A stretch of 34,071 nt of DNA from a virus (lineage: Duplodnaviria > Heunggongvirae > Uroviricota > Caudoviricetes): positions 1 to 34,071 of IMG/VR virus record IMGVR_UViG_2721755657_000001; one strand, given 5' to 3'. Numbering within the stretch: the first letter of the stretch is position 1; each line of letters opens with the position of its first letter. Shown here piece after piece: positions 476 through 32,565 of this stretch. The translations under genes and the position numbers were made by a program. The notes below the pieces were generated by a model that was given only the letters and a program-made list of their open reading frames with translations, had not been told where the DNA came from and made no database searches.

Positions 476-503
476 TAAAAAATAAGCCCGTGTAAGGGAG
501 ATT
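476..503. repeat. attL core (direct repeat shared with attR)
   Basis: taaaaaataagcccgtgtaagggagatt is identical to 32538..32565. The 27-bp part matches the P2 att core as I recall it. Integrase gene immediately to the right. Confidence 0.9.
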
Positions 504-582
504 TAGGGTGTCACCAGTAGGGGCTTTCAACGGTACAATGCGGGTTTGAGCGGCATAAATTACCACTGAAAGCCCTTAAACG

Positions 583-1596
583 TTACTCTACTGTGGACAC
601 TGTGTGGACACTCTCGGCCTCAGTACCACCTCTTAGCGGATTAAGAGAAATGGCGTCCTGAAGGTACTCTGGCGCAAAATGAGCGTAAACCATAGTTTGC
701 TCAATCCGCGTGTGACCTAGTATCCGTTGTAGCGTGATAATACTTCCTCCATTAATCATGAAATGAGTGGCAAAGCTGTGCCTTAGTGCATGTGTGGCTT
801 GCCCCATTGGCAAATCCGGTTTTATTGCTTTCATTGTTCGTCTGAAGCGAGGGTAATCAGCATCAGGGAATAAAAAACCTCGTTTGTTATCCGCGATCAT
901 TTTGGCAACAGCCTCTGAGATCGGGACGGTGCGTGGTTTGTTTGTTTTCGTTTTAACAAACGTGACGCGGTTATGGATGATATTTTCTGCTTTCAAACGA
1001 GCTGCTTCTCCCCAACGTGCTCCTGTACTCAGGCAAAGAATCGCAATCTTTTTATTGTCGCCGTCAAGTGCTGCAAGCAGTAAGGCAATTTCTTCCTGTG
1101 TGAGATAGCCTGTTTCTGGTTTTTCCTCCTTAAGCCTCTTTGTCCCTCTGATAGGGTGCTCACCAAAGAATAACTCCGCTTCAATCAGGGCTGTAAACAT
1201 GCCGCTAATACATGTTAAATCACGATTGATACTCGAAGGTTTAATACCCTGACTTCTTCGGGTGGCGCAGTACTGGCTGATAAGGGATTTCGTGATTTGA
1301 AATGCGCATGGGTCATTCGTTATTTTTGTGAAGATTTCAATTTTTCCAAGATTAGATTTCCCATGCTCTTCGTGTTTACCCTTTAAATCCCACCAGATCT
1401 GTGTCAGTTCCGACAGACGTCGTTTGTCTGTTGGTTTTGATAGCCATTCTTTATTGTGGTGGTTGTACAACGTGTATTTTTCGAAAGCGACAGCTTCGCT
1501 TTTCTTATCAAACTTCCTACGGATGCGTTTTCCGTTACGTCCAGTAGGGCGGATGTCCACTTCATATCGACCATCATCGAGTTTTTTGATTGCCAT
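583..1596 (-). CDS. int: Tyrosine integrase (P2 Int-like)
   Basis: 337-aa ORF. C-terminus carries the tyrosine-recombinase catalytic signature (HALRHSF...LGHTRIEQTMVYAH). Adjacent to attL. Confidence 0.95.
   Translation of the reverse strand: MAIKKLDDGRYEVDIRPTGRNGKRIRRKFDKKSEAVAFEKYTLYNHHNKEWLSKPTDKRRLSELTQIWWDLKGKHEEHGKSNLGKIEIFTKITNDPCAFQITKSLISQYCATRRSQGIKPSSINRDLTCISGMFTALIEAELFFGEHPIRGTKRLKEEKPETGYLTQEEIALLLAALDGDNKKIAILCLSTGARWGEAARLKAENIIHNRVTFVKTKTNKPRTVPISEAVAKMIADNKRGFLFPDADYPRFRRTMKAIKPDLPMGQATHALRHSFATHFMINGGSIITLQRILGHTRIEQTMVYAHFAPEYLQDAISLNPLRGGTEAESVHTVSTVE
592..610. promoter_or_regulatory. Tandem Int arm-type binding sites (TGTGGACA x2) in the P' arm
   Basis: TGTGGACA at 592..599 and 603..610, directly repeated next to the att core and overlapping the int 3' end. 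Matches the recalled P2 Int arm-site motif. Confidence 0.6.
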
Positions 1597-1711
1597 CAGA
1601 AAACCCTCCGAGTGGTACTTTTTTTTGCTACTACTAATCGCTTTTTTCGTGGTGGCTGAAATTTAGCCACCAATAGTAGGCACTTGTGATGAATATATTC
1701 ACGATAAATTG

Positions 1712-2011
1712 TTAACCAGTCTTTTGACCGGAGTGGGGCGACGTTGTTTCGTTTTGCCCAAAGTGTGCGAGAGCGGGCGCAATTTGCCCGGCTTCTGGAG
1801 CTACCTGATCAGTCATGAACCACAAAGTATATTTAGTAAATCTAGGATGTTGTAAGACCTTCATTATGGCTTCAACTCCAGCGTTTTTTGACCGGCTCTC
1901 ATAGCTCGAAAGTGAGCTGTAGGCTACACCAGTTAATTCACTGAATTCTTTACGGTTTAACCTTTCAGATTCACGGATTAGCTTCAACTTCTCCGAAACG
2001 TCTATTGACAT
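1712..2011 (-). CDS. C: Immunity repressor C (P2 C-like)
   Basis: 99-aa product starting MSIDVSEKLK at the internal ATG (2011) of the 1712..2083 ORF. HTH-type sequence with the C-terminal ...FTKYTLWFMTDQVAPEAGQIAPALAHFGQNETTSPHSGQKTG recalled from P2 C. Divergent from cox. Confidence 0.85.
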   Translation of the reverse strand: MSIDVSEKLKLIRESERLNRKEFSELTGVAYSSLSSYESRSKNAGVEAIMKVLQHPRFTKYTLWFMTDQVAPEAGQIAPALAHFGQNETTSPHSGQKTG

Positions 2012-2088
2012 AATTACTCCGATTGCGTAATTTCTTGCTGATAGTGTGAAATGTTGTGCTTCTGGAGTTATCCTTTTAGGCAATAATT

Positions 2089-2107
2089 AGCCATTAGGAG
2101 CCATTAG
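2089..2107. promoter_or_regulatory. Candidate repressor operator: two direct AGCCATTAG repeats in the C/cox switch region
   Basis: AGCCATTAG at 2089..2097 and 2099..2107, about 26 bp upstream of the cox ATG, between the divergent C and cox genes. P2 C is known to bind direct repeats. Confidence 0.4.
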
Positions 2108-2132
2108 AAGCACTAAGGGAGAATCGTAGCAG

Positions 2133-2408
2133 ATGAATAGACAGCTTGTAAGCGTGACTGATGCCGTGCCTTATCAGGAGTTTGCAAAACTCATTGGTAA
2201 AACTCCAAGAGCTGTAAGGGGCATGATTGAGAAAGGGAAATTACCAGTTATTGAGATTACTGACCCTCAGTCAGTATCGGGGCGTGCTGGTGAATATTGG
2301 GTATACCTTCCGGCATGGAATAACGGACTAAAACTGGCTTATGAAAGCCGTCCTAAAGAGATTCGTGACGGCTGGTTGATGTGGTTAGGTCTCGGTGAAC
2401 CACGTTAA
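2133..2408 (+). CDS. cox: Cox (excisionase / Pc repressor)
   Basis: 91-aa ORF divergent from C, with SD AGGGAG upstream. Sequence ...GRAGEYWVYLPAWNNGLKLAYESRPKEIRDGWLMWLGLGEPR recalled as P2 Cox. Confidence 0.85.
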   Translation: MNRQLVSVTDAVPYQEFAKLIGKTPRAVRGMIEKGKLPVIEITDPQSVSGRAGEYWVYLPAWNNGLKLAYESRPKEIRDGWLMWLGLGEPR

Positions 2409-2418
2409 GGAGAACCGT

Positions 2419-2589
2419 ATGAATGAGCCTCGTTGTATTGCTCAGTTATTGCGTAACGAAAGCCCCAGGGCGATTGACTTCACCATCACCCACGGGAAGG
2501 GGCGTAAGGGAATCATTATCCGCACCAAAAAACAGAGTCCGTTAAAAAAGGCTCTGACCTTTCTGAAAAGCCGGAGGGTATGGAAATGA
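2419..2589 (+). CDS. Small early protein (P2 orf78 position)
   Basis: ATG at 2419 preceded by AAGGAG. 56 aa, basic. Sits between cox and B as in P2. Confidence 0.5.
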   Translation: MNEPRCIAQLLRNESPRAIDFTITHGKGRKGIIIRTKKQSPLKKALTFLKSRRVWK

Positions 2590-3086
2590 CAGTGATGACG
2601 CTCAATCTCGTTGAAAAACAGCCAGCAGCTATGCGCCGGATAATTGGTAAGCATCTTGCCGTTCCTCGCTGGCAGGATACATGTGATTATTATAATCAGA
2701 TGATGGAGCGCGAACGGTTAACGGTTTGCTTCCATGCTCAGTTAAAACAGCGTCACGCAACGATGTGTTTTGAAGAAATGAACGACGTCGAACGTGAACG
2801 ACTGGTATGTGCAATTGATGAATTGCGTGGTGCATTCTCAAAACGCCGTCAGGTTGGCGCAAGTGAGTATGCATATATTAGTTTTTTAACAGTCAGTCAG
2901 CGTCGTACTTTATTTATGCATGCCGGATTGACTGAAAAAGAATTCAACCAGCCATACTGGCGAATTAATGAAGAGTCATGTTACTGGCGTGATGCTTTAT
3001 TCCGTGCATTACGTGAATTATTCAGTCTGTTTGAGTATGCACCGACAATTCTGACGTCGGTAAAACCAGAGCAATATCTGCATTAA
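2586..3086 (+). CDS. B: Replication protein B (helicase-loader-like)
   Basis: 166-aa product from the ATG at 2586 (GGAGGG SD 7-8 nt upstream). Sequence MTVMTLNLVEKQPAAMRRIIGKHLAVPRWQDTCDYYNQ... recalled as P2 gpB. Confidence 0.85.
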   Translation: MTVMTLNLVEKQPAAMRRIIGKHLAVPRWQDTCDYYNQMMERERLTVCFHAQLKQRHATMCFEEMNDVERERLVCAIDELRGAFSKRRQVGASEYAYISFLTVSQRRTLFMHAGLTEKEFNQPYWRINEESCYWRDALFRALRELFSLFEYAPTILTSVKPEQYLH

Positions 3087-3149
3087 GTAATTAACCGGAG
3101 TTTTTAACGCACTTAATTGTGCGGGGCTTCTTTTTGCCTGGAGAAAGTC

Positions 3150-3374
3150 ATGCATACAGTTTCTGAAAATCAGTGCGGTAAATACGCATTACTGCTGCAA
3201 CAGGCCAGAACCGAAGCACAGGCCGACGCAGCGACGCGCTTTTCTTCTCATCTTGACGCCATGATTCGCCACATCACAAAGGCGGAGTTATCCCGCGTGG
3301 AGATAGTCGAGCTGCTCAGTCAGGAGTCGGAAAAATTTCACAATATCGGATTGTCTCGCGGGGAGGTGCTTTGA
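3150..3374 (+). CDS. Hypothetical early protein (orf80 position)
   Basis: ATG at 3150 with GGAGAAA SD, inside ORF 3117..3374. No recognisable motifs. Confidence 0.5.
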
Positions 3375-3676
3375 TGTCCTGTTCTCGTTCAGTTGTATTA
3401 CTGAATAACGCCTTAAAAATCGCCGTTATGAAAAATGGCGATTTATCTCTTATTCAACTTGGTCTTGATAAAGAAAAACGCGAAATAACTGAGTCTGTTA
3501 TCGCGATTTATCAGAACGAATTAAATCTCCTGTCTGATGTGGTCAATTTACTTGTTAAACGCGCTGTATTTCACAAGCAAATCTCCTCCGTGGATGAACT
3601 GACGAAATTAACGACAGAAATTGCCAGCTATTGCGCTGATGAATTTAAAAAACTTAACGACAAAAGGAGCTGGTAA
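3374..3676 (+). CDS. Hypothetical early protein (orf81 position)
   Basis: ATG at 3374 with GGAGG SD 7 nt upstream (the track start at 3371 is a TTG). 100 aa. Confidence 0.55.
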   Translation: MSCSRSVVLLNNALKIAVMKNGDLSLIQLGLDKEKREITESVIAIYQNELNLLSDVVNLLVKRAVFHKQISSVDELTKLTTEIASYCADEFKKLNDKRSW

Positions 3677-3900
3677 TGCCGGACAACGTAGATTTTATTC
3701 AGGAACAACAGGCTGAATTACTGGAGCGTCAGATTAACGCGGCAAGGGTAAAACATTGCGGTGCTTCTGCGCTGGTTTGCGAAGAGTGTGACGCGCCAAT
3801 ACCTGCTGCCCGTCGTGCGGCTTATCCGTCAGCCACGCGTTGTGTTTCCTGTCAGTCAGTCTTTGAAGCAAAAAACAAACATTACCGGAGAACGGCATGA
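3676..3900 (+). CDS. TraR/DksA-type C4 zinc-finger protein (orf82 position)
   Basis: 74 aa with CxxC...CxxC (CEECDAPIPAARRAAYPSATRCVSC). AAGGAG SD. TAATG overlap with upstream gene. Confidence 0.7.
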   Translation: MPDNVDFIQEQQAELLERQINAARVKHCGASALVCEECDAPIPAARRAAYPSATRCVSCQSVFEAKNKHYRRTA

Positions 3901-4172
3901 GTATTCGTATTGAAATTGGCGAACGTTATGTCGTTACCAGTGACAGCTTTCAGTTTATTCTCCACGAGAAAAAGAGAGCGGAAAGCGGTAAAAACGCCGG
4001 TCAGGAATGGCTGGCGGTGGTTGGTTATTACCCGAAATTAAGCCAGCTCGTTTCCGGCCTGATGCATCACGATATTCTGACCGGAAGCGCAAAATCTTTT
4101 GCTGATTTAAACGCGCAGGTTGAGCAACTCAGCAAGCGTTGTTCAGAGGCTTTTGGCTCATATGGCCGTTAA
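3897..4172 (+). CDS. Hypothetical early protein (orf83 position)
   Basis: 91-aa ORF, ATGA overlap with the upstream stop, GGAG SD. Its 3' end overlaps the A start. Confidence 0.55.
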   Translation: MSIRIEIGERYVVTSDSFQFILHEKKRAESGKNAGQEWLAVVGYYPKLSQLVSGLMHHDILTGSAKSFADLNAQVEQLSKRCSEAFGSYGR

Positions 4173-6447
4173 AGCCTCCGGGCGTTTTGTCCCTCCGGCA
4201 GCATTTGCCGCAGGCACCGGTAAGACGTTTACCGGTGCTTATGCATGGAACGCGCCACGCGAGGCTGTCGGGCGCGAAAGACCCCTTACACGTGACGAGA
4301 TGCGTCAGGTGCAAGGTGTTTTATCCACGATTAACCGCCTGCCTTACTTTTTGCGTTCGCTGTTTACTTCACGCTATGACTACATCCGGCGCAATAAAAG
4401 CCCGGTACACGGGTTTTATTTCCTCACATCCACTTTTCAGCGTCGTTTATGGCCGCGCATTGAGCGTGTGAATCAGCGCCATGAAATGAACACCGATGCG
4501 TCGTTGCTGTTTCTGGCAGAGCGCGACAAGTATGCGCGCCTGCCGGGAATGAATGACAGAGAGCTGAAAAAGTTTGCCGCCCGTATCTCATCGCTGCTTT
4601 TCATGATGTATGAGGAACTCTGCGATGCATGGGTTGATGCGCATGGCGAGAAAGAATCGCTGTTTACGGATGAGGCGCAGGCTCACCTCTATGGTCATGT
4701 TGCTGGTGCTGCTCGTGCTTTCAATATTTCCCCTCTCTACTGGAAAAAATACCGTAAAGGACAGATGACCACGAGGCAGGCATATTCTGCCATTGCCCGC
4801 CTGTTTAACGATGAGTGGTGGACTCATCAGCTTAAAGGCCAGCGTATGCGCTGGCATGAGGCGTTACTGATAGCTGTCGGGGAGGTTAATAAAGACCGTT
4901 CTCCTTATGCCAGTAAACATGCCATTCGTGATGTGCGTGCGCGCCGCCAGGCAAATCTGGAATTTCTTAAATCGTGTGACCTTGAAAACAGGGAAACCAG
5001 CGAGCGCATCGACCTTATCAGTAAGGTGATGGGCAGTATTTCTAATCCTGAAATTCGCCGGATGGAGCTGATGAACACCATTGCCGGTATTGAGCGTTAC
5101 GCCGCCGCAGAGGGTGATGTGGGGATGTTTATCACGCTGACCACGCCGTCAAAGTATCACCCGACACGTCAGGTCGGAAAAGGCGAAAGTAAAACCGTCC
5201 AGCTAAATCATGGCTGGAACGATGAGGCATTTAATCCAAAGGATGCGCAGCGTTATCTCTGCCGTATCTGGAGCCTGATGCGCACGGCATTCAAGGATAA
5301 TGATTTACAGGTCTACGGTTTGCGTGTCGTCGAGCCACACCACGACGGAACGCCGCACTGGCATATGATGCTTTTTTGTAATCCACGCCAGCGTAACCAG
5401 ATTATCGAAATCATGCGTCGCTATGCGCTCAAAGAGGATGGCGACGAAAGAGGAGCCGCGCGAAACCGTTTTCAGGCAAAACATCTTAACCGGGGCGGTG
5501 CTGCGGGGTATATCGCGAAATACATCTCAAAAAACATCGATGGCTATGCACTGGATGGTCAGCTCGATAACGATACCGGCAGGCCGCTGAAAGATACTGC
5601 TGCGGCTGTTACCGCATGGGCGTCAACGTGGCGCATTCCGCAATTTAAAACGGTTGGTCTGCCGACAATGGGGGCTTACCGTGAACTACGCAAATTGCCT
5701 CGCGGCGTCAGCATTGCTGATGAGTTTGACGAGCGCGTCGAGGCTGCACGCGCCGCTGCAGACAGTGGTGATTTTGCGTTGTATATCAGCGCGCAGGGCG
5801 GGGCAAATGTCCCGCGCGATTGTCAGACTGTCAGGGTCGCCCGTAGCCCGTCGGATGACGTTAACGAGTACGAGGAAGAAGTCGAGAGAGTGGTCGGCAT
5901 TTACGCGCCGCATCTCGGCGCGCGTCATATTCATATCACCAGAACGACGGACTGGCGCATTGTGCCGAAAGTGCCGGTCGTTGAGCCTTTGACGTTAAAA
6001 AGCGGCATCGCCGCGCCTCGGAGTCCTGTCAATAACTGTGGAAAGCTCTCCGGTGGTGATACTTCGTTACCGGTTCCCACACCTTCTGAACATGCCGCAG
6101 CCGTGCTTAATCTGGTTGATGACGGTGTTATCGAATGGAATGAGCCAGAGGTCGTGAGGGCGCTCAGAGGTGCATTAAAACACGGACTGAGAACACCAAA
6201 TCGTCAGCAGAGAAACAGAAGCCTGTTAAAACCACATGAAATAGCGCCATCGGCCAGACTGACCCGGTCGGAACGAACGCAAATTACCCGTATCCGCGTT
6301 GACCTTGCTCAGAACGGTATCAGGCCGCAGCGATGGGAGATTGAGGCGCTGGCGCGTGGGGCAACCGTAAATTATGACGGGAAAAAATTCACGTATCCGG
6401 TCGCTGATGAGTGGCCGGGATTCTCAACAGTAATGGAGTGGACATGA
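4162..6447 (+). CDS. A: Replication initiation protein A (rolling-circle nickase)
   Basis: 761-aa product from the ATG at 4162 (MAVKASGRFVPP...), within ORF 4120..6447. Sequence recalled as P2 gpA. Confidence 0.9.
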   Translation: MAVKASGRFVPPAAFAAGTGKTFTGAYAWNAPREAVGRERPLTRDEMRQVQGVLSTINRLPYFLRSLFTSRYDYIRRNKSPVHGFYFLTSTFQRRLWPRIERVNQRHEMNTDASLLFLAERDKYARLPGMNDRELKKFAARISSLLFMMYEELCDAWVDAHGEKESLFTDEAQAHLYGHVAGAARAFNISPLYWKKYRKGQMTTRQAYSAIARLFNDEWWTHQLKGQRMRWHEALLIAVGEVNKDRSPYASKHAIRDVRARRQANLEFLKSCDLENRETSERIDLISKVMGSISNPEIRRMELMNTIAGIERYAAAEGDVGMFITLTTPSKYHPTRQVGKGESKTVQLNHGWNDEAFNPKDAQRYLCRIWSLMRTAFKDNDLQVYGLRVVEPHHDGTPHWHMMLFCNPRQRNQIIEIMRRYALKEDGDERGAARNRFQAKHLNRGGAAGYIAKYISKNIDGYALDGQLDNDTGRPLKDTAAAVTAWASTWRIPQFKTVGLPTMGAYRELRKLPRGVSIADEFDERVEAARAAADSGDFALYISAQGGANVPRDCQTVRVARSPSDDVNEYEEEVERVVGIYAPHLGARHIHITRTTDWRIVPKVPVVEPLTLKSGIAAPRSPVNNCGKLSGGDTSLPVPTPSEHAAAVLNLVDDGVIEWNEPEVVRALRGALKHGLRTPNRQQRNRSLLKPHEIAPSARLTRSERTQITRIRVDLAQNGIRPQRWEIEALARGATVNYDGKKFTYPVADEWPGFSTVMEWT

Positions 6448-6899
6448 TGGCAAAAATTCACGAGGTAAAGCTGCACGCAAAATATTTCGACCTTGTGCTG
6501 GAAGGAAAGAAACGCGCAGAGTTTCGGAAAAATGACCGTAATTATGAGCGCGGGGACACGTTGATTTTGCATGAATGGGTGCAGGGTGTGTATACGGGGC
6601 GAAAGGTTGAAGCCCGGATAACAGATGTTACTGACCTGTCAGACTGGCTGGAAGATTATGTCTTGCTAAGTATTGAGCGGCTTAATACAGGCGCATATGA
6701 GATTGTGAACTGGAAAGAACTTAGTGAGCGTGGTCTGGTATTCAGAATTAATCATGAAATTATGCATCAGCTCGGCCTTGCTGTTATGTATGAATCAGAG
6801 ACGGGGATGTCTGGCGGGGCAATGGTAGCCACGGATGGAGCATGGAACTATTCAGATGAACAGATGGAGCGTGCAAAGCAAAACGGGTGGCTTGGATAA
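6444..6899 (+). CDS. ASCH/PUA-like (DUF3850-like) domain protein, translationally coupled to A
   Basis: ATG at 6444 overlaps the A stop (ATGA). The N-terminal ~80 aa (KIHEVKLHAKYFDLVLEGKKRAEFRKNDRNYERGDTLILHE) resemble the ASCH GxKxxExR-type fold. Domain call is from motif reading only. Confidence 0.5.
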   Translation: MMAKIHEVKLHAKYFDLVLEGKKRAEFRKNDRNYERGDTLILHEWVQGVYTGRKVEARITDVTDLSDWLEDYVLLSIERLNTGAYEIVNWKELSERGLVFRINHEIMHQLGLAVMYESETGMSGGAMVATDGAWNYSDEQMERAKQNGWLG

Positions 6900-7105
6900 T
6901 GCACAGAATACCAGGCGAGATACCGCACCATAAAACTAAAAATATCAAGCTGATGGCTATTGTTCAGCGTTTACAGCGGATTATGGTCAACGAAAATCTG
7001 ACGCCCGATGAGCTGGTCGGGTGTGCCGAAATAGTACGGGATAATTACGGGCGGCTTAACTATATCGGTCAGTCCAGAGTTGCGCCACCACCACGCAGAC
7101 GATAG
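6899..7105 (+). CDS. Small hypothetical protein (68 aa), coupled to upstream gene
   Basis: ATG at 6899 in a TAATG overlap with the upstream stop. Arg/Pro-rich C-terminus. Backbone-like base composition. Confidence 0.4.
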   Translation: MHRIPGEIPHHKTKNIKLMAIVQRLQRIMVNENLTPDELVGCAEIVRDNYGRLNYIGQSRVAPPPRRR

Positions 7106-7328
7106 AGAACGCCGCCAGTTGTGAAACTTGTTTTCAGGGCTGGCGGGGTTGAACAACGAGCGAAGCGAGACGTTAGTTGACAGACATATTTTTACTACGT
7201 TGGTGCTGGTTTTTGACGGTTGAAAGGAGTTAGGTTGGAGAGCTAACAACTTACAAATATTCAAAAGTAAGCATCCTGTTGCTAACATGAGGTTGATTTT
7301 TTATGTGGATGATGCAAAAAGGATAGCT

Positions 7329-8060
7329 ATGGATACTATAATCGCTTTTCTATCACTCGCTTTTTTCGTTGCTTTCTTCATCGGGCTAATCAAGCCATCA
7401 CTGGTGCGAATGCCAAACCGCAAACGTGCAAGTGCGGTTTATCTCGGAGGAGGTTTTGTATTGAGCATAATTGGTTCAATACTCTATCCAACAGAAAAAA
7501 GCCAGCCAGTTGCTAAAACTGAAACATCAACCGTTGCAGAACACAAAGTCCAAAAAACATTCGAATATGGTGAAAAAACACTCAAGGAATATCGGAACGA
7601 GTCAAAGAAAACACGACACGATATTGTGAATAGTTACATTGATTTTAAGGAAGTTCCAGCCACCGCGTCAGATGCGTTTTATGCCTGCATGAGTGAGTAT
7701 ACATTTACCAAAGATGATGAGTTGAAACTCGGTGATGTTCTTGGGTGGTGCTTTAATGATTATGAAAATGACCCGAGTTCACTAAACAATAAAATCAATC
7801 TTGATACATTTCAGAGTAATTTTAGTGGTTGGGATGGTTCTTATCGTCCATTGGAAAAACTAATTAAAGATAATATGAACGATGATTCATCTTATAAACA
7901 TGTGTCAACGGTATATCATCTGGTTTTGAATAAAGACCCGCATGCCATTGTGAAAACCACGTTTCGCGGAACTAATGCTTATGGCGGAGTAGTGAAACAG
8001 ACGATTGCTGCGCGTGTCAATGTAGAAACAGGTGAGGTTGTATCAATTATAAGTGAGTGA
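7329..8060 (+). CDS. Cargo gene 1 in the A-cos (tin/old) slot: membrane-anchored protein of unknown function
   Basis: ATG at 7329 with AAGGA SD 5 nt upstream (alternative ATG at 7287 has no SD). Two N-terminal hydrophobic segments (IIAFLSLAFFVAFFIGLI, VYLGGGFVLSIIGSILY) followed by a ~190-aa soluble domain. Visibly AT-rich relative to flanking phage genes. Confidence 0.65.
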   Translation: MDTIIAFLSLAFFVAFFIGLIKPSLVRMPNRKRASAVYLGGGFVLSIIGSILYPTEKSQPVAKTETSTVAEHKVQKTFEYGEKTLKEYRNESKKTRHDIVNSYIDFKEVPATASDAFYACMSEYTFTKDDELKLGDVLGWCFNDYENDPSSLNNKINLDTFQSNFSGWDGSYRPLEKLIKDNMNDDSSYKHVSTVYHLVLNKDPHAIVKTTFRGTNAYGGVVKQTIAARVNVETGEVVSIISE

Positions 8061-8158
8061 ACTGTGCCAGAATGATAAAGATGCCAGCATTTATGCTGGC
8101 AATCATAAAAATAGTGACTAGCAAAAATTGGTGTCTGGTTTTAATGTGAGATTAGAAA

Positions 8159-8857
8159 ATGAAGAGATGTAAATATATTTTAAGAGGTTTGTTGCTGAAG
8201 TTTAAAAGTATAAGTTCTATGCATTTGTTATTTGTTTTAATAACGGCTTGTCTATTCTTTTTTATAGGGTGTTACGTGGGTTATAGTGGTATTGGTTTGA
8301 ATGGTGACACTAAATACCAATTAATTACAATACCTTTTTTGACCATGTTGGGTACTTGGGTTTCTGGGGTGGGAGCATTTTCTGCTGTTGCGACATCATT
8401 GTTGTTGGCACACCGTTCGCTAAAGGAAAATTCAGAAGAAATTGCTATTCGATATAGCATGGTGTTAATACCATCAATGTACTTACCTAGCACTACAGAT
8501 ACAGCAATATCAATAACCATAACAAACAAAAGAAAAGTAAGGAGTAATATTCAATCGGTTGTTTTGCAATTTTCTAATAATAAAGCAATGAATATATGGG
8601 TAAACCCCGGGACGCTTATCTCTGGCAAGTTACCGCATGTTTTAGAAGACTATGGTGATATATTGACGCTTATAATTCCAGAGAGCATTACCGCATCAGT
8701 AACTGATGAGGGGTTCGTAAAAGAATGTCAGGGGAATACTCTTGGAGAAGGTAGCGTCGTAGTTCACACAACGACAAAAACATTTGTAAAAAAATTAACA
8801 TTACCTCAAATTAAGCCATTTAATGATAAATTTAAGTCTGTATTGACGAAGCCGTAA
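8159..8857 (+). CDS. Cargo gene 2 in the A-cos slot: membrane/lipoprotein-like protein of unknown function
   Basis: 232-aa ORF. Basic N-terminus, then hydrophobic stretches (LLFVLITACLFFFIGC, possible lipobox FIGC; second stretch AFSAVATSLLLA), then a ~140-aa soluble C-terminal region. AT-rich. 98 bp downstream of cargo gene 1 on the same strand. Confidence 0.6.
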   Translation: MKRCKYILRGLLLKFKSISSMHLLFVLITACLFFFIGCYVGYSGIGLNGDTKYQLITIPFLTMLGTWVSGVGAFSAVATSLLLAHRSLKENSEEIAIRYSMVLIPSMYLPSTTDTAISITITNKRKVRSNIQSVVLQFSNNKAMNIWVNPGTLISGKLPHVLEDYGDILTLIIPESITASVTDEGFVKECQGNTLGEGSVVVHTTTKTFVKKLTLPQIKPFNDKFKSVLTKP

Positions 8858-8981
8858 GAGGTGCGTTGCGTTGCATTTTTTTGCATCTTCAAGGATTAAT
8901 TTCTGCATCTTTATTTTGCCAGTACTGATGTGCTTTTAATGGACTCATGCAACTGCATTAAAATCGACCCATGAAGCGGGC

Positions 8982-9000
8982 GGGCGAGGCGGGGAAAGCA
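8982..9000. other. cos site (19-nt cohesive-end sequence)
   Basis: GGCGAGGCGGGGAAAGCAC matches the P2 19-nt cohesive end as I recall it. Lies between the accessory slot and Q, as in P2. Confidence 0.8.
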
Positions 9001-9141
9001 CTGCGCGCTGGCGGTGGTGCTGATTTTATTTTCCAGCGTCTCAGCGCGTCGTGAAGGCGCTTAGTCTGCCCGTTGGGGGTTGGTGTGTCTGCGGGGTGTT
9101 TTGTGCGGTGGTGAGCGAGTGAGGGCGTGATGACGGGGTAT

Positions 9142-9168: not shown

Positions 9169-10203
9169 TCAGCCGTTGTCAGTGTCCAGTGAGTAGTTTT
9201 TAAAGCGGATGACCTCCTGACCGAGCCAGCCGTTTATCTCGCGGATCCTGTCCTGTAGCGGGATAAGCTCATTGCGGACAAAGACCTTTGCCACTTTCTC
9301 AATATCACCCAGCGACCCGACGTTCTCCGGCTTGCCGCCCATCAACTGAAAGGGGATGCGGTGCGCGTCCAGCAGGTCAGCGGCGCTGGCTTTTTTGATA
9401 TTAAAAAAATCGTCCTTCGTTGCCACTTCACTGAGCGGGATAATTTTGATGCCGTCGGCTTTCCCCTGTGGGGCATAGAGAAACAGATTTTTAAAGTTGT
9501 TGCGGCCTTTCGACTTCACCATGTTTTCGCGGAGCATTTCGATATCGTTGCGATCCTGCACGGCATCAGTGACGTACATGATGTATCCGGCATGAGCGCC
9601 GTTTTCGTAATACTTGCGGCGGAACAGTGTGGCTGATTCATTCAGCCAGGCAGAATTAAGGGCGCTGAGATATTCCGGCAGGCCGTACAGCTCCTGATTG
9701 ATATCCGGCTCCAGCAGGTGAAACACGGAGCCGGGCGTGAAGGCTGTCGGCTCGTTGAAGGACGGCACCCACCAGTAAACATCCTCCTCCACGCCACGGC
9801 GGGTATATTTTGCCGGTGAGGTTTCCAGTCTGATGACCTTACCGGTGGTGCTGTAACGCTTTTCCAGAAACGCATTACCGAACACCAGAAAATCCAGCAC
9901 AAAGCGGCTGAAATCCTGTTGCGAAAGCCACGGATGCGGGATAAATGTCGAGGCCAGAATATTGCGTTTAACGTAAATCGGTGAGCTGTGATGCACGGCA
10001 GCACGCAGGCTTTTCGCCAGACCGGTAAAGCTGACCGGCGGCTCATACCATCTGCCGTTACTGATGCACTCGACGTAATCCAGAATGTCACGGCGGTCGA
10101 GTACCGGCACCGGCTCACCAAAGGTGAAAGCCTCCATTTTCGGGGCGCTGGCGGTCATTTTTTTTGCCTCAGGTTGCGGTGTTTTCCCTTTTTTCTTGCT
10201 CAT
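9169..10203 (-). CDS. Q: Portal protein
   Basis: 344-aa ORF in the P2 Q position and orientation, divergent from O. Overlaps the start of terminase P. Confidence 0.9.
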   Translation of the reverse strand: MSKKKGKTPQPEAKKMTASAPKMEAFTFGEPVPVLDRRDILDYVECISNGRWYEPPVSFTGLAKSLRAAVHHSSPIYVKRNILASTFIPHPWLSQQDFSRFVLDFLVFGNAFLEKRYSTTGKVIRLETSPAKYTRRGVEEDVYWWVPSFNEPTAFTPGSVFHLLEPDINQELYGLPEYLSALNSAWLNESATLFRRKYYENGAHAGYIMYVTDAVQDRNDIEMLRENMVKSKGRNNFKNLFLYAPQGKADGIKIIPLSEVATKDDFFNIKKASAADLLDAHRIPFQLMGGKPENVGSLGDIEKVAKVFVRNELIPLQDRIREINGWLGQEVIRFKNYSLDTDNG

Positions 10204-11975: not shown

Positions 11976-12148
11976 GAATACCTCGCCGTGATGAATACAC
12001 GGCAAGGCTACTGAGTCGCGCCCCGCGATTCGCTAAGGTGCTGTTGTGTCAGTGATAAGCCATCCGGGACTGATGGCGGAGGATGCGCATCGTCGGGAAA
12101 CTGATGCCGACATGTGACTCCTCTAATCACTATTCAGGGCTCCTGACA

Positions 12149-13003: not shown

Positions 13004-13061
13004 CCGGCGTCAGTCAGTCCGGGAAAACCTTCACGATTAACCCTTAATTTCAGGAAAAACT

Positions 13062-14135: not shown

Positions 14136-14138
14136 CCG

Positions 14139-14882: not shown

Positions 14883-14981
14883 CAACCGAATGCGCCCCGC
14901 GCCAGGGCGGCACGCCGGTCAGTGAGGGTGAATCACCTGACACTGCACCGGCGTCCACCGCCCGACTTTTCAGAGGTAGTC

Positions 14982-15694: not shown

Positions 15695-15697
15695 CGC

Positions 15698-16476: not shown

Positions 16477-16490
16477 ACGGAGTAAACACC

Positions 16491-20269: not shown

Positions 20270-20273
20270 AACC

Positions 20274-21182: not shown

Positions 21183-21705
21183 TTCGCGACTGCTGCCGAC
21201 CGGCTCATCACCGCTTGAGGTCGCCGCCGCAAAAGCCTGTGCGGAAATTGAAAAAACGCCGGTCAGTATTCGTGAGCTGTGGAACCCGGATACCTGTCCG
21301 GCAAATTTGCTGCCGTGGCTGGCGTGGGCGTTTTCGGTCGACAGGTGGGATGAGAAGTGGCCGGAAGCGACAAAACGCGCCGTTATCCGCGATGCGTATT
21401 TCATCCACTGTCATAAAGGCACTATAGGTGCAATCCGGCGTGTGGTGGAGCCGCTCGGCTATCTCATCAACGTGACGGAGTGGTGGGAAAACAGTGACCC
21501 GCCCGGCACCTTCCGGCTTGATATTGGTGTACTGGAAAGTGGCATCACAGAGGCAATGTATCAGGAAATGGAACGGCTGATTGCTGATGCCAAACCTGCA
21601 AGCCGTCACCTTATTGGCCTGAACATTACCCGGGACATTCCCGGCTACCTGTTCGCCGGTGGTGTGGCTTACGACGGCGATGTAATTACGGTTTACCCCG
21701 GATAA
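21175..21705 (+). CDS. I: Baseplate/tail protein I
   Basis: 176-aa ORF overlapping the J end. P2 gpI position. Confidence 0.88.
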   Translation: MSDSRLLPTGSSPLEVAAAKACAEIEKTPVSIRELWNPDTCPANLLPWLAWAFSVDRWDEKWPEATKRAVIRDAYFIHCHKGTIGAIRRVVEPLGYLINVTEWWENSDPPGTFRLDIGVLESGITEAMYQEMERLIADAKPASRHLIGLNITRDIPGYLFAGGVAYDGDVITVYPG

Positions 21706-21715
21706 GTGAGGAATA

Positions 21716-24034
21716 ATGAGCACAAAATTCAAAACCGTTATCACCACTGCCGGTGCAGCAAAGCTGGCAGCGGCAACCGCGCCGGGAGGGCGGAAGGTCA
21801 ACATTACCACGATGGCCGTCGGGGATGGCGGTGGTAAATTGCCTGTCCCGGATGCCGGACAGACCGGGCTTATCCATGAAGTCTGGCGACATGCGCTGAA
21901 CAAAATCAGCCAGGACAAACGAAACAGTAATTATATTATCGCAGAGCTGGTTATTCCGCCGGAGGTGGGCGGTTTCTGGATGCGTGAGCTTGGCCTGTAC
22001 GATGATGCGGGAACGTTAATTGCCGTGGCGAACATGGCCGAAAGTTATAAGCCAGCCCTTGCCGAAGGCTCAGGACGTTCGCAGACCTGCCGCATGGTCA
22101 TTATCGTCAGCAGTGTGGCCTCAGTGGATCTGACCATCGACACCACAACGGTGATGGCGACGCAGGATTACGTTGATGACAAAATTGCAGAGCACGAACA
22201 GTCACGACGTCACCCGGACGCCTCGCTGACCGCAAAAGGTTTTACTCAGTTAAGCAATGCGACCAACAGCACGTCTGAAACACTGGCCGCAACGCCGAAA
22301 GCGGTTAAGGCCGCATATGACCTTGCTAACGGGAAATATACCGCACAGGACGCTACCACAGCGCGAAAAGGTCTTGTCCAGCTAAGTAGTGCGACCAACA
22401 GCATGTCTGAAACGCTCGCCGCAACACCAAAAGCGGTTAAGGCAGCGTATGACCTTGCTAACGGGAAATACACTGCACAGGACGCCACCACAGCGCGAAA
22501 AGGTCTTGTCCAGCTCAGTAGCGTCACCAACAGCGATTCTGAAACGCTTGCGGCAACGCCAAAGGCGGTTAAGACAGCGTATGACCTTGCTAACGGGAAA
22601 TACACTGCACAGGATGCCACCACCGCGCGAAAAGGTCTTGTCCAGCTCAGTAGCGCCACCAACAGCGATTCTGAAACGCTGGCTGCAACATCAAAAGCGG
22701 TAAAGTCTGCCTATGACAATGCTGAAAAACGTCTTCAGAAAGATCAGAACGGTGCGGATATTCCGGGAAAGGATACCTTCACGAAAAATATCGGTGCCTG
22801 TCGTGCTTATAGCGGCGCTTTGAGCACTGAAGCCGGAAACTGGACAACCGCTCAGTTTATTGAATGGCTGGATTCCCGTGGTGCATTTAATCATCCGTAC
22901 TGGATGTGCAAAGGCTCCTGGTCATATGCAAATAACAAAATCATTACGGATACCGGATGTGGTGATATCCACCTGGCTGGTTGTGTCGTCGAGGTCATGG
23001 GAACTAAATCTGCAATCACTATCCGAGTGACCACGCCGACAACATCAAGCGGTGGCGGTACAACCAGCGCGCAATTCACTTACATAAATCATGGGGACGG
23101 CTACTCCCCCGGCTGGCGTCGTGACTGGAATCGTCAGGGCGACGCAATGACCGGAACGATTAATCAGGATGGCGGAAGCCAGAATGCCTATATGTCTACG
23201 GCCTTATGTTCAGGCACCAGAGGCGGCAAAAAATATCTCAGAAAGTTTCGTGGTGGAGAAGGAGACACTATCTGGCATGAAACAGTACAGGGCGGGGTAG
23301 TTCGCTGGGCGACTGGTAATACTGATGCTCAGGAAGAATTATCACTCAGCTCCGCTTATGGTCTCCGTTCAAGAGGTGAGATTACATCAAGCAGTGCTAA
23401 TGGTCTGCGCATTGCTTATGGCAATTATGGATTCTTTATCAGGAATGATGGCAGCAGCACTTATTTTATGTTGACTAAATCAGGTGACAGATTAGGCACT
23501 TATAATAATTTAAGACCACTGATTATAAATGATGCCACGGGTGCTGTATCAATGGGGCATGGCCTGAGTGTTACAGGTGATATTGTCTCAAGCACCAAAG
23601 TACGTGCCGGTAGCGGGAAAAAGTTCACGGTCAGCAGCAGCAATACATCCACGAAGGAAGCCGCATTCAATTTGTGGGGAAACTCAAGTCGTCCTGTGGT
23701 GGCTGAATTAGGTGATGATGCAGGCTGGCATTTTTACAGTCAGAGAAATACAGATAACAGCATCACTTTTGCTGTTAACGGGCAGGTATCACCATCTAAC
23801 TATGGAAACTTTGATTCACGCTATGTCCGGGATATCCGGCTTGGTGGTGCTGCCACATACAAACCTGCGAACAATGGTATGACATGGACACATCAGGCAC
23901 CGTCCGGGTGTGTATATTCCGGCATTATTGTTCAGGATACCGGCTCAAACTCTGCCGATAACATTGGTGGCGTATATTACAGACCGGTGCAGAAATACAT
24001 TAACGGGACTTGGTATAACGTGGCGCAGGTATAA
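21716..24034 (+). CDS. H: Tail fibre protein H
   Basis: 772-aa ORF with an internal 44-aa tandem-repeat region and a Gly/Ser/Thr-rich C-terminal region. Followed by the tail-fibre assembly gene. Confidence 0.9.
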   Translation: MSTKFKTVITTAGAAKLAAATAPGGRKVNITTMAVGDGGGKLPVPDAGQTGLIHEVWRHALNKISQDKRNSNYIIAELVIPPEVGGFWMRELGLYDDAGTLIAVANMAESYKPALAEGSGRSQTCRMVIIVSSVASVDLTIDTTTVMATQDYVDDKIAEHEQSRRHPDASLTAKGFTQLSNATNSTSETLAATPKAVKAAYDLANGKYTAQDATTARKGLVQLSSATNSMSETLAATPKAVKAAYDLANGKYTAQDATTARKGLVQLSSVTNSDSETLAATPKAVKTAYDLANGKYTAQDATTARKGLVQLSSATNSDSETLAATSKAVKSAYDNAEKRLQKDQNGADIPGKDTFTKNIGACRAYSGALSTEAGNWTTAQFIEWLDSRGAFNHPYWMCKGSWSYANNKIITDTGCGDIHLAGCVVEVMGTKSAITIRVTTPTTSSGGGTTSAQFTYINHGDGYSPGWRRDWNRQGDAMTGTINQDGGSQNAYMSTALCSGTRGGKKYLRKFRGGEGDTIWHETVQGGVVRWATGNTDAQEELSLSSAYGLRSRGEITSSSANGLRIAYGNYGFFIRNDGSSTYFMLTKSGDRLGTYNNLRPLIINDATGAVSMGHGLSVTGDIVSSTKVRAGSGKKFTVSSSNTSTKEAAFNLWGNSSRPVVAELGDDAGWHFYSQRNTDNSITFAVNGQVSPSNYGNFDSRYVRDIRLGGAATYKPANNGMTWTHQAPSGCVYSGIIVQDTGSNSADNIGGVYYRPVQKYINGTWYNVAQV
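22235..22735 (+). repeat. 132-bp tandem repeat (about 3.8 copies) inside H, encoding a 44-aa repeat
   Basis: Unit starts at about 22238, 22370, 22502 and 22634 (KG[FL][TV]QLS..TNS.SETLAATPKAVK.AYDLANGKYTAQDATTAR). Copies are near-identical at the DNA level. Confidence 0.85.
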
Positions 24035-24037
24035 TTT

Positions 24038-24565
24038 ATGCAGCATTTGATAAATATAACGGCAGGTAATCCAAAAACGGTTGAACAATATCAATTGACA
24101 AAAGACTTTGATGTTGTCTGGTTTTTTTCAGAAGATGGTAAGAACTGGTACGAAGAACAAAAGTATTTTGCTGATGACACGCTAAAAATAGCGTACGACA
24201 AAGATAATATCATCCGCTATGTGGAAAAGGATGTGACAGCTATCAGACCGGATGGATTAAGTGTGGTTGAAGTGGCGGATATTACTGCTAACCGACGGGC
24301 GGACATTTCAGGGGGCTGGATGTTTAAGGGCGGCAAAGTGATTAAACGCATTTATACGGCAGAGGAATTGCAGCAGCAGGCAGAAAACCGGAAAGCCAGA
24401 CTTCTTGCAGATGCTGAATCCGTGATTTTGCCGCTGGAGCGCGCTGTCAGGCTGAATATGGCTACAGAGGAGGAGCGCACACGACTGGAAGCATGGGAAC
24501 GCTACAGCGTTCTGGTCAGTCGTGTGGATCCTGCAAATCCTGAATGGCCGGAAATGCCGCAATAA
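24038..24565 (+). CDS. G: Tail fibre assembly chaperone G
   Basis: 175-aa ORF immediately downstream of H. P2 gpG position. Confidence 0.88.
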
Positions 24566-25000
24566 GTTGTATGAGCTCTGGTGTGAGCTTACATATCTAT
24601 GGCACAGAGTAAAGACTAATCTGACAGTCCGCTCTGTGCCAGGAGCAGCCATTGCTAAGTCCATCCTGTATTGTGCAGGTCAGCTCGTTTTTAAAGAGTC
24701 CGGCCATCATCTTACTGGTACAGACACCATATACTTTGTGACGGTCAGGCTACATATGCACAACTCAACTTATTCATCTATTTTTTGCTTTAGCATGTCA
24801 GTGTTGCTTTCTCGTCGGCGGGTGAGCGGTGACCTGACCTGTCGATAAAGGAACGTAGCACGTTTTATGCAACACCCGCATGCGGCAGAAAATTATTGCC
24901 GAACGTTTACCCCTGTCAACAAGCTTTACTTTCTGAGGCGCGCCAGCCCGCGAGGAAAACAATCTGAACATCAAACAATTAATGACACAAGAAATACGAT

Positions 25001-25027
25001 TAAAGATTTTTTTGTGCATGCCGATAG
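25001..25027 (+). promoter_or_regulatory. Near-consensus sigma-28 (FliA) promoter upstream of the FlxA-like gene
   Basis: TAAAGATT (25001..25008), 11-nt spacer, GCCGATAG (25020..25027), against consensus TAAAGTTT-N11-GCCGATAA (14/16). Followed by GGAG SD and the ATG at 25051. Confidence 0.7.
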
Positions 25028-25050
25028 TGCTTTTTTAAAAGGAGAAATCT

Positions 25051-25383
25051 ATGTCTGTCACAATTCAGGGAAATACCTCAACCGTTATTTCAAACAACTC
25101 CGCCCCAGAAGGAACATCAGAAATAGCCAAAATCACAAGACAAATTCAGGTGCTGACTGAAAAGCTTGGGAAAATCTCATCGGAAGAGGGGATGACGACA
25201 CAGCAGAAAAAAGAATTAGCTGCATTGGTACAGAAGCAAATTGAAAGCCTCAGGGCTCAACTGGAGCAGTTGTTAAGGCAGCAGGCAGAGAAAAAGAATA
25301 AAGACGCGACAGTTCAGCCTGATAAAAAAGAAGAGAAAAAAGACGATACAAATACCGCTGGCACCATTGATATTTACGTCTAA
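25051..25383 (+). CDS. flxA: FlxA-like small charged coiled-coil protein (cargo in the G-FI slot)
   Basis: 110-aa ORF with strong SD (AAGGAG), Gln/Lys/Glu-rich coiled-coil-like sequence, its own sigma-28-type promoter and terminator. Size, composition and FliA-type promoter match my recollection of E. coli FlxA; identity is recall-based. Confidence 0.6.
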   Translation: MSVTIQGNTSTVISNNSAPEGTSEIAKITRQIQVLTEKLGKISSEEGMTTQQKKELAALVQKQIESLRAQLEQLLRQQAEKKNKDATVQPDKKEEKKDDTNTAGTIDIYV

Positions 25384-25397
25384 GTGACAGCCGTATT

Positions 25398-25420
25398 GTG
25401 GCCCTCATCGGGCCACTTTT
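25398..25420 (+). terminator. Intrinsic terminator of the FlxA-like gene
   Basis: GTGGCCC-tcatc-GGGCCAC followed by TTTT, 15 nt after the stop codon. Confidence 0.75.
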
Positions 25421-25833
25421 CGCCATCAGCCTTTTCTTTAAAGACATATTATCTTTGTATCATTTCTGATAGTTAACATTACAAGATATAAGTAATGGAC
25501 GCACTCCCAATTAGTCTATTTAAATCGCCACGAGTTTAACTGACAACCCATGATCAATTATGAATTGCAACTATTTCTGTAGTCACTTTTGTGGGGACAG
25601 TCCACAAAACTGCCAACTTCCGCTTCTCGCTCAAAGCAGACTGTCAGATTTGATAGCGTTTGGGCTATGTAAATTGTCAGTTGGAAAATGAGTGAGTGCA
25701 AATCATGGCAGGCTGGCGGATTACCCGCCTTTTCTTTGTCTGTTGTTTCATCCCCTGACCAGCCAGGTCAAATAGCGTCTCATGCTCTGCACAACAGAAA
25801 ATAGTTGCACCCATTAACCACGGAGTTAAACGG

Positions 25834-30479: not shown

Positions 30480-30493
30480 GGAGGTGACGAAAA

Positions 30494-30973
30494 ATGATGC
30501 TCGCGTTAGGTATGTTTGTTTTTATGCGCCAGACGCTGCCACACCAGACCATGCAGCGTGAATCAGATTATCGCTGGCCGTCAAATTCCCGTATCGGTAA
30601 ACGGGACGCCTACCAGTTTCTCGGTGTTGGCGATGAAAACATCACGCTTGCCGGTGTGCTTTATCCTGAACTGACCGGCGGAAAGCTGACGATGACCACG
30701 CTCAGGCTGATGGCAGAGGAAGGCCGGGCGTGGCCGTTGCTGGATGGCACCGGCATGATTTACGGCATGTATGTCATCAGCAAGGTGAGTGAAACAGGGA
30801 GTATTTTCTTTGCAGACGGCACACCCCGAAAAATTGATTTTACGCTGTCGCTCACCCGTGTTGATGAATCACTGGCCGCGCTTTATGGCGATATCGGTAA
30901 ACAGGCGGAATCGCTCATCGGTAAGGCTGGCAGTATGGCGACCAGATTCACGGGTATGACGGGGGTGGGATAA
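30494..30973 (+). CDS. U: Tail protein U
   Basis: 159-aa ORF after T with GAGGTGA SD. Confidence 0.88.
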   Translation: MMLALGMFVFMRQTLPHQTMQRESDYRWPSNSRIGKRDAYQFLGVGDENITLAGVLYPELTGGKLTMTTLRLMAEEGRAWPLLDGTGMIYGMYVISKVSETGSIFFADGTPRKIDFTLSLTRVDESLAALYGDIGKQAESLIGKAGSMATRFTGMTGVG

Positions 30974-32136
30974 TGCTGGATGCACTGACATTTGATGCAG
31001 GCAGTACGCTGACGCCGGATTACATGCTGATGCTCGACAGCAGGGATATTACCAGCAATATCAGTGACCGTCTGATGAGCATGACCCTGACGGATAACCG
31101 GGGCTTTGAGGCTGACCAGCTTGATATTGAACTGAACGATGCCGACGGGCAGGTCGGGCTGCCGGTTCGTGGCGCTGTCCTGACGGTGTATATCGGCTGG
31201 AAAGGTTTTGCCCTGGTATGCAAAGGGAAATTTACCGTTGATGAGGTTGAACACCGGGGCGCACCGGATGTGGTCACCATCCGCGCCCGGAGTGCAGATT
31301 TCCGCGGGACGCTCAATTCCCGCCGTGAAGGCTCCTGGCATGACACCACGCTCGGTGCGATTGTTGAGGCGATAGCCTCCCGTAACAGGCTGGAAGCCAG
31401 TGTCGCTCCGTCACTGGCCGGAATTAAAATCCCGCACATCGACCAGTCGCAGGAGTCTGATGCGAAATTCCTGACCCGTCTTGCAGAACGCAACGGCGGT
31501 GAGGTGTCGGTAAAAATGGGAAAACTGCTGTTTCTCAAAGCGGGGCAGGGGGTGACTGCCAGCGGTAAAAAAATCCCGCAGATTACCATCACCCGCAGCG
31601 ACGGTGACCGTCATCATTTTGCGATTGCTGACCGTGGAGCCTATACCGGCGTAACGGCAAAGTGGTTACACACCAAAGACCCGAAACCACAAAAGCAGAA
31701 GGTAAAACTGAAACGCAAAAAGAAAGAAAAACACCTGCGCGCACTGGAGCACCCGAAAGCGAAACCGGTCACGCAGAAGAAAGCGCCAAAAGTACCGGAA
31801 GCGCGCGAAGGTGAATACATGGCCGGTGAGGCTGACAACGTTTTTGCCCTGACTACGGTATATGCCACGAAAGCGCAGGCCATGCGCGCCGCTCAGGCGA
31901 AGTGGGATAAACTGCAACGGGGTGTGGCGGAGTTCTCCATCAGCCTGGCTACCGGTCGGGCAGATATTTACACGGAAACACCGGTTAAAGTGTCAGGCTT
32001 TAAGCGCGTCATAGACGAGCAGGACTGGACAATCACTAAGGTGACACATTTTCTGAATAATAGCGGCTTCACGACGTCCCTGGAGCTTGAGGTCAGGCTT
32101 TCTGATGTGGAGTACGAAACAGAAGATGATGAGTAA
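30973..32136 (+). CDS. D: Tail protein D (late control gene D)
   Basis: 387-aa ORF with TAATG overlap with U. Last gene of the tail operon, before ogr. Confidence 0.9.
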   Translation: MLDALTFDAGSTLTPDYMLMLDSRDITSNISDRLMSMTLTDNRGFEADQLDIELNDADGQVGLPVRGAVLTVYIGWKGFALVCKGKFTVDEVEHRGAPDVVTIRARSADFRGTLNSRREGSWHDTTLGAIVEAIASRNRLEASVAPSLAGIKIPHIDQSQESDAKFLTRLAERNGGEVSVKMGKLLFLKAGQGVTASGKKIPQITITRSDGDRHHFAIADRGAYTGVTAKWLHTKDPKPQKQKVKLKRKKKEKHLRALEHPKAKPVTQKKAPKVPEAREGEYMAGEADNVFALTTVYATKAQAMRAAQAKWDKLQRGVAEFSISLATGRADIYTETPVKVSGFKRVIDEQDWTITKVTHFLNNSGFTTSLELEVRLSDVEYETEDDE

Positions 32137-32217
32137 TGTTTTTGTTTTATCTGTTTGTTTTATAAGGATAAATTAACTAAAATGACACCATCAACAAAAC
32201 CGGAAGAGGTGCTCGCG

Positions 32218-32436
32218 ATGTTTCATTGTCCTTTATGCCAGCATGCCGCACATGCGCGTACAAGTCGCTATATCACTGACACGACAAAAGAGCGTTATCA
32301 CCAGTGTCAGAACGTGAATTGCAGCGCCACGTTCATCACTTATGAGTCGGTACAGCGATACATCGTGAAGCCGGGAGAAGTCCACGCCGTAAGGCCGCAC
32401 CCGTTGCCGTCAGGGCAGCAAATTATGTGGATGTAA
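32218..32436 (+). CDS. ogr: Ogr, zinc-finger late transcription activator
   Basis: 72-aa product from the internal ATG at 32218 (MFHCPLCQHAAHARTSRYITDTTKERYHQCQNVNCSATFITYESVQRYIV...), with Cys4 motif CxxC...CxxxxC. Last phage gene before attR. Confidence 0.9.
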   Translation: MFHCPLCQHAAHARTSRYITDTTKERYHQCQNVNCSATFITYESVQRYIVKPGEVHAVRPHPLPSGQQIMWM

Positions 32437-32448
32437 TTAGAAACAGGA

Positions 32449-32474
32449 AGCCCCTCAGTCGAGGGGCTTTTTTT
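32449..32474 (+). terminator. Intrinsic terminator after ogr
   Basis: AGCCCCTC-agtc-GAGGGGCT followed by a T-run, 13 nt after the ogr stop. Confidence 0.85.
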
Positions 32475-32537
32475 GTCGATGTGGTCAATGTGTGGACGTG
32501 ACCAGAAATAAATCCTTTTATTTCAATTTGTTGTTCG

Positions 32538-32565
32538 TAAAAAATAAGCCCGTGTAAGGGAGATT
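32538..32565. repeat. attR core (direct repeat of attL), overlapping the 3' end/terminator of cyaR
   Basis: Identical 28 bp to 476..503. Forms the 3' terminus of the cyaR transcript on the minus strand. Confidence 0.9.

Follow-up and report, generated by a model that had tools for sequence, protein, structure and literature searches.

A P2-like prophage integrated at the 3′ end of the CyaR small RNA gene

CyaR is a small RNA (sRNA) whose expression is CRP-dependent and which regulates ompX and other targets in an Hfq-dependent manner; Escherichia coli K-12 is the strain in which it was characterised. The 3′ end of its gene, cyaR, is equated with locI, the preferred integration site of bacteriophage P2 in E. 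coli. Alongside this stand two published statements: Archer et al. give "cyaR RNA" as the insertion site of Wphi2 in E. coli W, of ogr-D' in K-12 and of P2*B in E. coli B (PMC3032704, Table 2), and Bobay et al. describe E. coli ryeE as [quoted passage not shown] (PMC3603311). More generally, elements that integrate at the 3′ ends of structured RNA genes (tRNA, tmRNA and sRNAs such as ryeB/SdsR in Salmonella) carry a core that duplicates the 3′ part of the RNA and leaves the gene intact (PMC3603311). Here we analyse the IMG/VR record IMGVR_UViG_2721755657_000001 (34,071 nt, hereafter the window), in which a P2-like prophage occupies cyaR. The target is the terminator of an Hfq-dependent sRNA, as opposed to the tRNA arm used in tRNA-type integration. 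Because published work already lists cyaR/ryeE as a P2 or phage target, the arrangement is a known one of an ordinary, textbook type, and the identification of a P2-type prophage at this gene is correct.

Several described systems can be set beside this locus. P2 at locI shares with it the attP core AAAAAATAAGCCCGTGTAAGGGAGATT (27 bp), the integrase Int and the prophage gene order, and differs in having C and Cox proteins toward which those of the window appear heteroimmune (65% and 84% amino acid identity), a shorter tail fibre H with a different tip, a G protein that is 73% identical, and the genes old, tin and fun(Z), which are exchanged for other cargo here. The cryptic ogrK-D' (yegZ) remnant of K-12 lies at the same site, and its attR, from the ogr terminator through the P arm, IHF site and core to cyaR, differs at hardly any base, but it retains just ~0.6 kb (a D' fragment and ogrK) plus a truncated left core, whereas the window holds a whole 32-kb prophage. 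Wphi2 and P2*B are P2-family prophages listed at the same sRNA gene, in other strains and with other cargo. Finally, P22H4 (LR595869) and phage 9W (OM475431) carry the same hotspot cassette as the prophage, but differ from it at the fun(Z) locus, where 17% of 24566-25833 matches.

Junctions of the prophage at cyaR

The features that define the insertion are the following.

1-318, plus strand: yegR, host gene of the left flank, annotated as such in matching E. coli genomes
476-503, plus strand: attL core, 28-bp exact repeat, at which homology to unoccupied genomes ends (at 503)
504-617, plus strand: putative P' arm of attL with Cox-binding and Int arm-type sites, placed by position relative to P2
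32446-32537, plus strand: ogr/F-operon terminator hairpin, Int P-arm sites and IHF site of attR, aligning to annotated P2 24265-24357
32538-32565, plus strand: attR core, 28-bp exact repeat, at which homology to unoccupied genomes begins (at 32538)
32539-32627, minus strand: cyaR (CyaR/RyeE sRNA), from Rfam RF00112, a terminator scan, folding and mapping of the 87-nt transcript
32710-34071, minus strand: yegQ, host gene of the right flank, annotated as such in matching genomes

An earlier note on this sequence had proposed that 28-bp direct repeats delimit the prophage, and this is borne out. There are exactly two copies of the 28-mer TAAAAAATAAGCCCGTGTAAGGGAGATT in the window (476-503 and 32538-32565), which bracket a unique prophage length of 32,062 bp. 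The 27-bp attP core annotated in P2 NC_001895 (24356-24382) corresponds to 477-503 and 32539-32565; the 28th base of the repeat, a T, is a coincidental identity of the host and phage flanks. The surrounding arms also follow the P2 annotation, running from the ogr terminator (hairpin at 32448-32469) through the Int P-arm sites, IHF site, core, Cox sites and P' arm to int. On the left side, positions 476-1841 are 98.2% identical to P2 24355-25720, a segment in which the P2 annotation places the Cox sites (24399-24472) and those of the P' arm (24470-24496).

The note had also called for comparison with an empty cyaR locus. When 504-32565 was removed in silico and window positions 1-503 were joined to 32566-34071, the 2,009-bp product aligned without gaps and at 99.85% identity to the unoccupied yegR-cyaR-yegQ locus of E. 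coli AMSHJX01. We then surveyed site occupancy in 5,426 complete E. coli genomes using left-flank and right-junction queries. The left-flank query matched nearly all of them, the match stopping exactly at 503 in unoccupied strains; with the right-junction query, the match in unoccupied genomes began exactly at 32538. A yegR-core-int (attL) junction was present in 811 genomes (15%) and an ogr-core-cyaR (attR) junction in 1,128 (21%), the excess of attR including remnants such as K-12 ogrK-D'. P2-type DNA occupies the cyaR site in roughly 15-21% of complete E. coli genomes. That the repeats might be a product of chance or of assembly, and not recombination junctions, has a negligible probability: no match was obtained in 100 dinucleotide-preserving shuffles even with up to three mismatches permitted, the repeats equal the annotated P2 attP core, and thousands of genomes lose homology exactly at the repeat edges. 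The shuffles, the empty-site reconstruction and the genome breakpoints rule such an origin out.

At the right junction, the minus strand matches Rfam RF00112 (CyaR_RyeE) from 32627 to 32542 with a score of 100.7 bits (gathering score 47, E 3.3e-19), and the match spans the full model (positions 1-85 of 85). The 87-nt K-12 CyaR sequence maps to 32625 through 32539. The gene lies downstream of yegQ and ends in an intrinsic terminator, with a stem-loop at 32547-32574 and a U-tract at 32539-32546, reading 5'-GCCUGUGU-AAUCUCCCUU-ACACGGGC-UUAUUUUUU. The right repeat overlaps CyaR by 24 nt when the end of the Rfam model is used and by 27 nt when the transcript end is used, the latter being the figure given in the earlier note, which had correctly included the U-tract. 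Of the terminator, the host alone contributes the 5′ stem half (32566-32573); the core contains the loop, the 3′ stem half and the U-tract. The proposal that the phage core restores the 3′ end of the sRNA also held up, since the core is identical to these three elements and the gene is whole.

Taken together, we consider it nearly certain that the element is an apparently intact P2-like (Peduovirus) prophage that entered the 3′ end of cyaR by Int-mediated site-specific recombination. In the proposed mechanism, the 27-bp attP core would have recombined with its identical counterpart in the 3′ end of cyaR on the chromosome, at what would be the classical preferred P2 site between yegR and yegQ. 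Since Int and the annotated attP architecture are the same as in P2, we infer canonical Int/IHF-mediated integration. Such an event duplicates the CyaR terminator loop, 3′ stem half and U-tract; the attR copy completes cyaR, and the attL copy is left as an orphan half-terminator beside int.

Gene content, integrity and mosaic modules

The remainder of the prophage is organised as listed here; percentages are amino acid identities to P2 unless stated otherwise.

583-1596, minus strand: int, tyrosine integrase, 337 of 337 residues as in P2 Int, with tyrosine recombinase family matches
1712-2011, minus strand: C repressor of the immunity switch, 65%, full length
2133-2408, plus strand: cox of the immunity switch, 84%, full length
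2419-6447, plus strand: early/replication operon (orf78, B, orf80-83, A), 96-100%, full length, ungapped
6441-6899, plus strand: orf91-like gene (DUF3850 and DUF7415), first open reading frame (ORF) of the old/tin hotspot cargo (6441-8857)
6887-7105, plus strand: 72-amino acid ORF of the hotspot cargo
7329-8060, plus strand: 243-amino acid protein of the hotspot cargo, with two transmembrane segments and a weak HdeA/B-like helical domain
8159-8857, plus strand: 232-amino acid membrane protein of the hotspot cargo
8983-9001, plus strand: cos, 19-nt cohesive end GGCGAGGCGGGGAAAGCAC, an exact match to P2 cosL/cosR
9169-18349: head, packaging, lysis and tail completion genes (Q and P on the minus strand; O, N, M, L, X, Y, K, lysA, lysB, lysC, R and S on the plus strand), 94-100%, full length
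18421-19206, minus strand: homologue of orf30, which is non-essential in P2; 84% to Orf30, phrog_2407, three hydrophobic segments by hydropathy
19290-24565, plus strand: baseplate and tail fibre genes V, W, J, I, H and G, with V to I 96-100%
24627-25641, plus strand: Qin-type lambdoid segment in place of fun(Z), in which flxA is intact (25051-25383) and ydfV is truncated, 98.9% identical to phage PhiR42_1
25834-32436, plus strand: tail operon FI, FII, E/E', T, U and D with the late activator ogr (32218-32436), 97-100%, full length

Gene integrity was assessed by tblastn with all 42 annotated P2 proteins against the window. Of these, 39 aligned end-to-end, ungapped and in the P2 prophage order (attL-int-C-cox-B-A-cos-Q...D-ogr-attR), Ogr being 100% identical; the non-essential old, tin and fun(Z) were the only P2 genes not found, and the orf91 homologue has a C-terminus unlike that of P2. 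Each gene that is essential in P2 is present at full length. The full P2 gene set announced in the earlier note is therefore present apart from these three genes and this altered C-terminus, and the same search revealed no inactivating lesion in int or in the structural genes, the kind of damage that the note had named as evidence against an intact element. Collinear DNA blocks are 96-98% identical to P2, and the closest records are Peduovirus genomes and prophages.

With the att cores, int, cox, C, the replication, head, lysis and tail genes, ogr and cos all intact, the prophage looks fully functional as far as its sequence can tell. A defective, cryptic element, unable to excise or to form particles despite its intact reading frames, is nevertheless conceivable at a site where P2-derived remnants are common; K-12 carries ogrK-D', and attR junctions outnumber attL junctions among the surveyed genomes. 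We regard this as quite improbable for the present element, since the 39 conserved P2 proteins are full length and free of frameshifts, the att cores are perfect, cos is identical, the slippery site of the E/E' frameshift (GGTTTTTTG) is kept as in P2, and 32,062 bp falls within the 29-34 kb range of packaged P2-like genomes. One point weighs on the other side of the intact-prophage interpretation: the C/cox immunity module and the tail-fibre tip are unlike those of P2. Excision and infectious particles are predictions from the sequence. No sequence feature contradicting an intact prophage was found in the window, and the description in the earlier note of an intact P2-like prophage at cyaR is structurally supported.

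Four segments have no DNA match in P2 (1842-2154, 6668-8953, 22442-23980 and 24642-25613). They are the usual mosaic modules, namely the C/cox immunity region, the old/tin locus, the tail-fibre tip and the fun(Z) locus. The C/cox module appears from its divergence to be a heteroimmune variant relative to P2. The immunity DNA at 1842-2154 is matched in vB_EcoM-720R8, and the vB_EcoM-720R8 prophage that shares it occupies the same yegR-side junction. The repressor itself is a 99-amino acid, P2-type protein that matches HTH_3 only; no peptidase domain was detected in it at E<=0.01, and no DinI/Tum-type family was matched among the hotspot ORFs. Classical P2 is non-inducible, and repressors of the P2 type are not cleaved in the SOS response. 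Because of this, and because the repressor is a short P2-type C with HTH_3 only, induction with mitomycin C, which the earlier note had suggested ahead of PCR for circular attP, is a poor test of this prophage.

The tail fibre H (21716-24034) has 772 amino acids, compared with 669 in P2, and resembles P2 H at its N- and C-terminal parts only (tblastn). It contains extra fibre repeats, including three tandem 132-nt repeats at 22234-22723 that encode additional Phage_fiber_2 units; a trimerisation domain like that of T4 gp34 is also present, and the receptor-binding tip has diverged. Its neighbour G, at just 73%, is full length. At the fun(Z) locus, FlxA is identified by a PF14282 match (E 3.5e-14), and in PhiR42_1 ydfV-flxA adjoin relBE. 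By its sequence, this content (~1 kb) would be a mosaic transfer from a lambdoid phage to a P2-like one.

CyaR in the lysogen

The earlier note had further claimed that excision or integration would interact with the expression and termination of cyaR. Our comparison leaves this unsupported. The cyaR promoter region is not part of the prophage, and neither the promoter nor any transcribed base distinguishes the lysogen from the empty site; the sRNA keeps its sequence because its 3′ end is duplicated in the phage core. The predicted terminator fold is likewise the same in both states, and K-12, where CyaR is expressed and functional, has the same attR context. Only the DNA 3′ of the U-tract differs, being CGAACAAC in the lysogen and UGCAUAAG in the empty site.

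It is in this downstream DNA that an influence on CyaR output could be sought, either as a changed termination efficiency or as read-through antisense into ogr/D that would couple cAMP-CRP signalling to the prophage. The CyaR terminator leaks: a published assay using a double-terminator plasmid in a delta-hfq strain gave 41% read-through (PMC9765468). The genes cyaR and ogr are convergent and ~100 bp apart. Given this read-through and the differing downstream DNA, the fates of the read-through RNA would differ between the two states. At the empty site there is an additional GGGCUUAU/AUAAGCCC hairpin across the core edge. In the lysogen, one may speculate that read-through would run antisense toward ogr and meet the ogr terminator hairpin ~70 nt on; on the minus strand this hairpin constitutes a second terminator-like block. 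With the promoter, the whole mature RNA and the terminator fold all unaltered, and with K-12 as a precedent, an effect of integration on CyaR output seems unlikely to us. In the same region, the inverted repeat GGGCTTAT/ATAAGCCC (464-489; the same bases in the empty-site E. coli locus L003) spans the left core edge, so that RNA extending past the CyaR U-tract at unoccupied sites could form an extra 8-bp hairpin, which is not present in the attR context.

Hotspot cargo and the history of the empty site

Anti-phage systems have been documented at the old/tin hotspot of P2, which serves as a reservoir for them, and in 19% of P2 elements it holds unknown genes only (PMC9122126, PMC13586616). A known anti-phage defence system in the hotspots of this prophage was considered and rejected: PADLOC gave no match at E<=0.01 among the six cargo proteins, the 72-, 243- and 232-amino acid ORFs matched no known family or PADLOC entry, and the two membrane proteins of 243 and 232 amino acids had neither an NCBIfam match nor an above-threshold Pfam match. 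The cassette at 6668-8953 is found at 99.3% identity in Peduovirus P22H4 (LR595869) and Escherichia phage 9W (OM475431). Among the complete E. coli genomes it is rare, with at least 80% of it present in 5 of 5,426, and its best identity among complete RefSeq E. coli genomes is 95.3%. The family of the 243-amino acid protein is widespread; its members stand directly after gpA in P2/186-like prophages of Serratia and Klebsiella, where the downstream partners vary, and one adjoins ogr in a P2-like locus of Photorhabdus. The 232-amino acid protein is rare and restricted to E. coli, in 14 near-identical homologue clusters. As a tentative suggestion, which we hold to be possible and well short of probable, the 243-amino acid protein, alone or with the 232-amino acid protein, may replace old/tin with an undescribed anti-phage or superinfection-exclusion function. 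A second and weaker option is that leaky cyaR termination might send CRP-dependent antisense transcripts into the prophage ogr.

The host side of the insertion was examined by scanning genomes with a CyaR pattern, which yielded 120 loci from many genera of Enterobacterales; the pattern fixes the terminator loop, so that loop conservation is built in. Nearly all of them preserve the yegQ-cyaR synteny, and covariation is seen in the terminator stems. In several, a P2-type P arm lies directly downstream of cyaR, with the IHF site TGAAATAAAAGGATTTATTTCT and the Int arm sites GTCCACACATTGACCACATCGA. Citrobacter youngae (L103, L128) and Enterobacteriaceae bacterium G50 (L116) have ogr and D along with the arm, and L116 and L128 also have U and T; in E. 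albertii (L119), Buttiauxella (L084) and Enterobacter (L093), neither ogr nor D was detected beside it. In the loci with ogr and D, the core position carries the host's own variant of the CyaR terminator. P2-like elements with host-matched core variants are present in Citrobacter and in an unclassified Enterobacteriaceae isolate. We also considered whether phage-donated 3′ halves had left imperfect terminator stems and rejected the idea, perfect stems being found in 4 of 10 loci beside P2-like arms and in 59 of 110 elsewhere.

The left host flank of the window holds a trace of the same kind.

425-464, plus strand: degenerate P2-type P arm in the host flank (TCGATGTGGTCAATG...GTGACCAG), from repeat D7 (75% over 40 nt, with a 15-nt exact block) and a multi-genus arm alignment

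This arm retains the 15-nt TCGATGTGGTCAATG and the GTGACCAG blocks and lacks the IHF site. Because it occurs even in unoccupied E. coli loci (L003 and L074), an older P2-like integration is suggested, and the standard empty attB of E. coli may itself be a scar, the old attR of that event. On the same sequence comparison, it looks like the ogrK-D' remnant of K-12 came on top of the older scar. A search for a phage P arm closer than that of P2 to the host flank at 319-475 was unsuccessful, as only two records matched and one of them was a prophage record that includes host flank.

This locus illustrates cleanly how a phage can use a regulatory sRNA terminator as its target and, by bringing a replacement copy, leave the RNA to its host. 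Its importance beyond annotation is small. The useful leads are the cargo of the old/tin hotspot and the sign that the empty cyaR site of E. coli may be the scar of an older integration.

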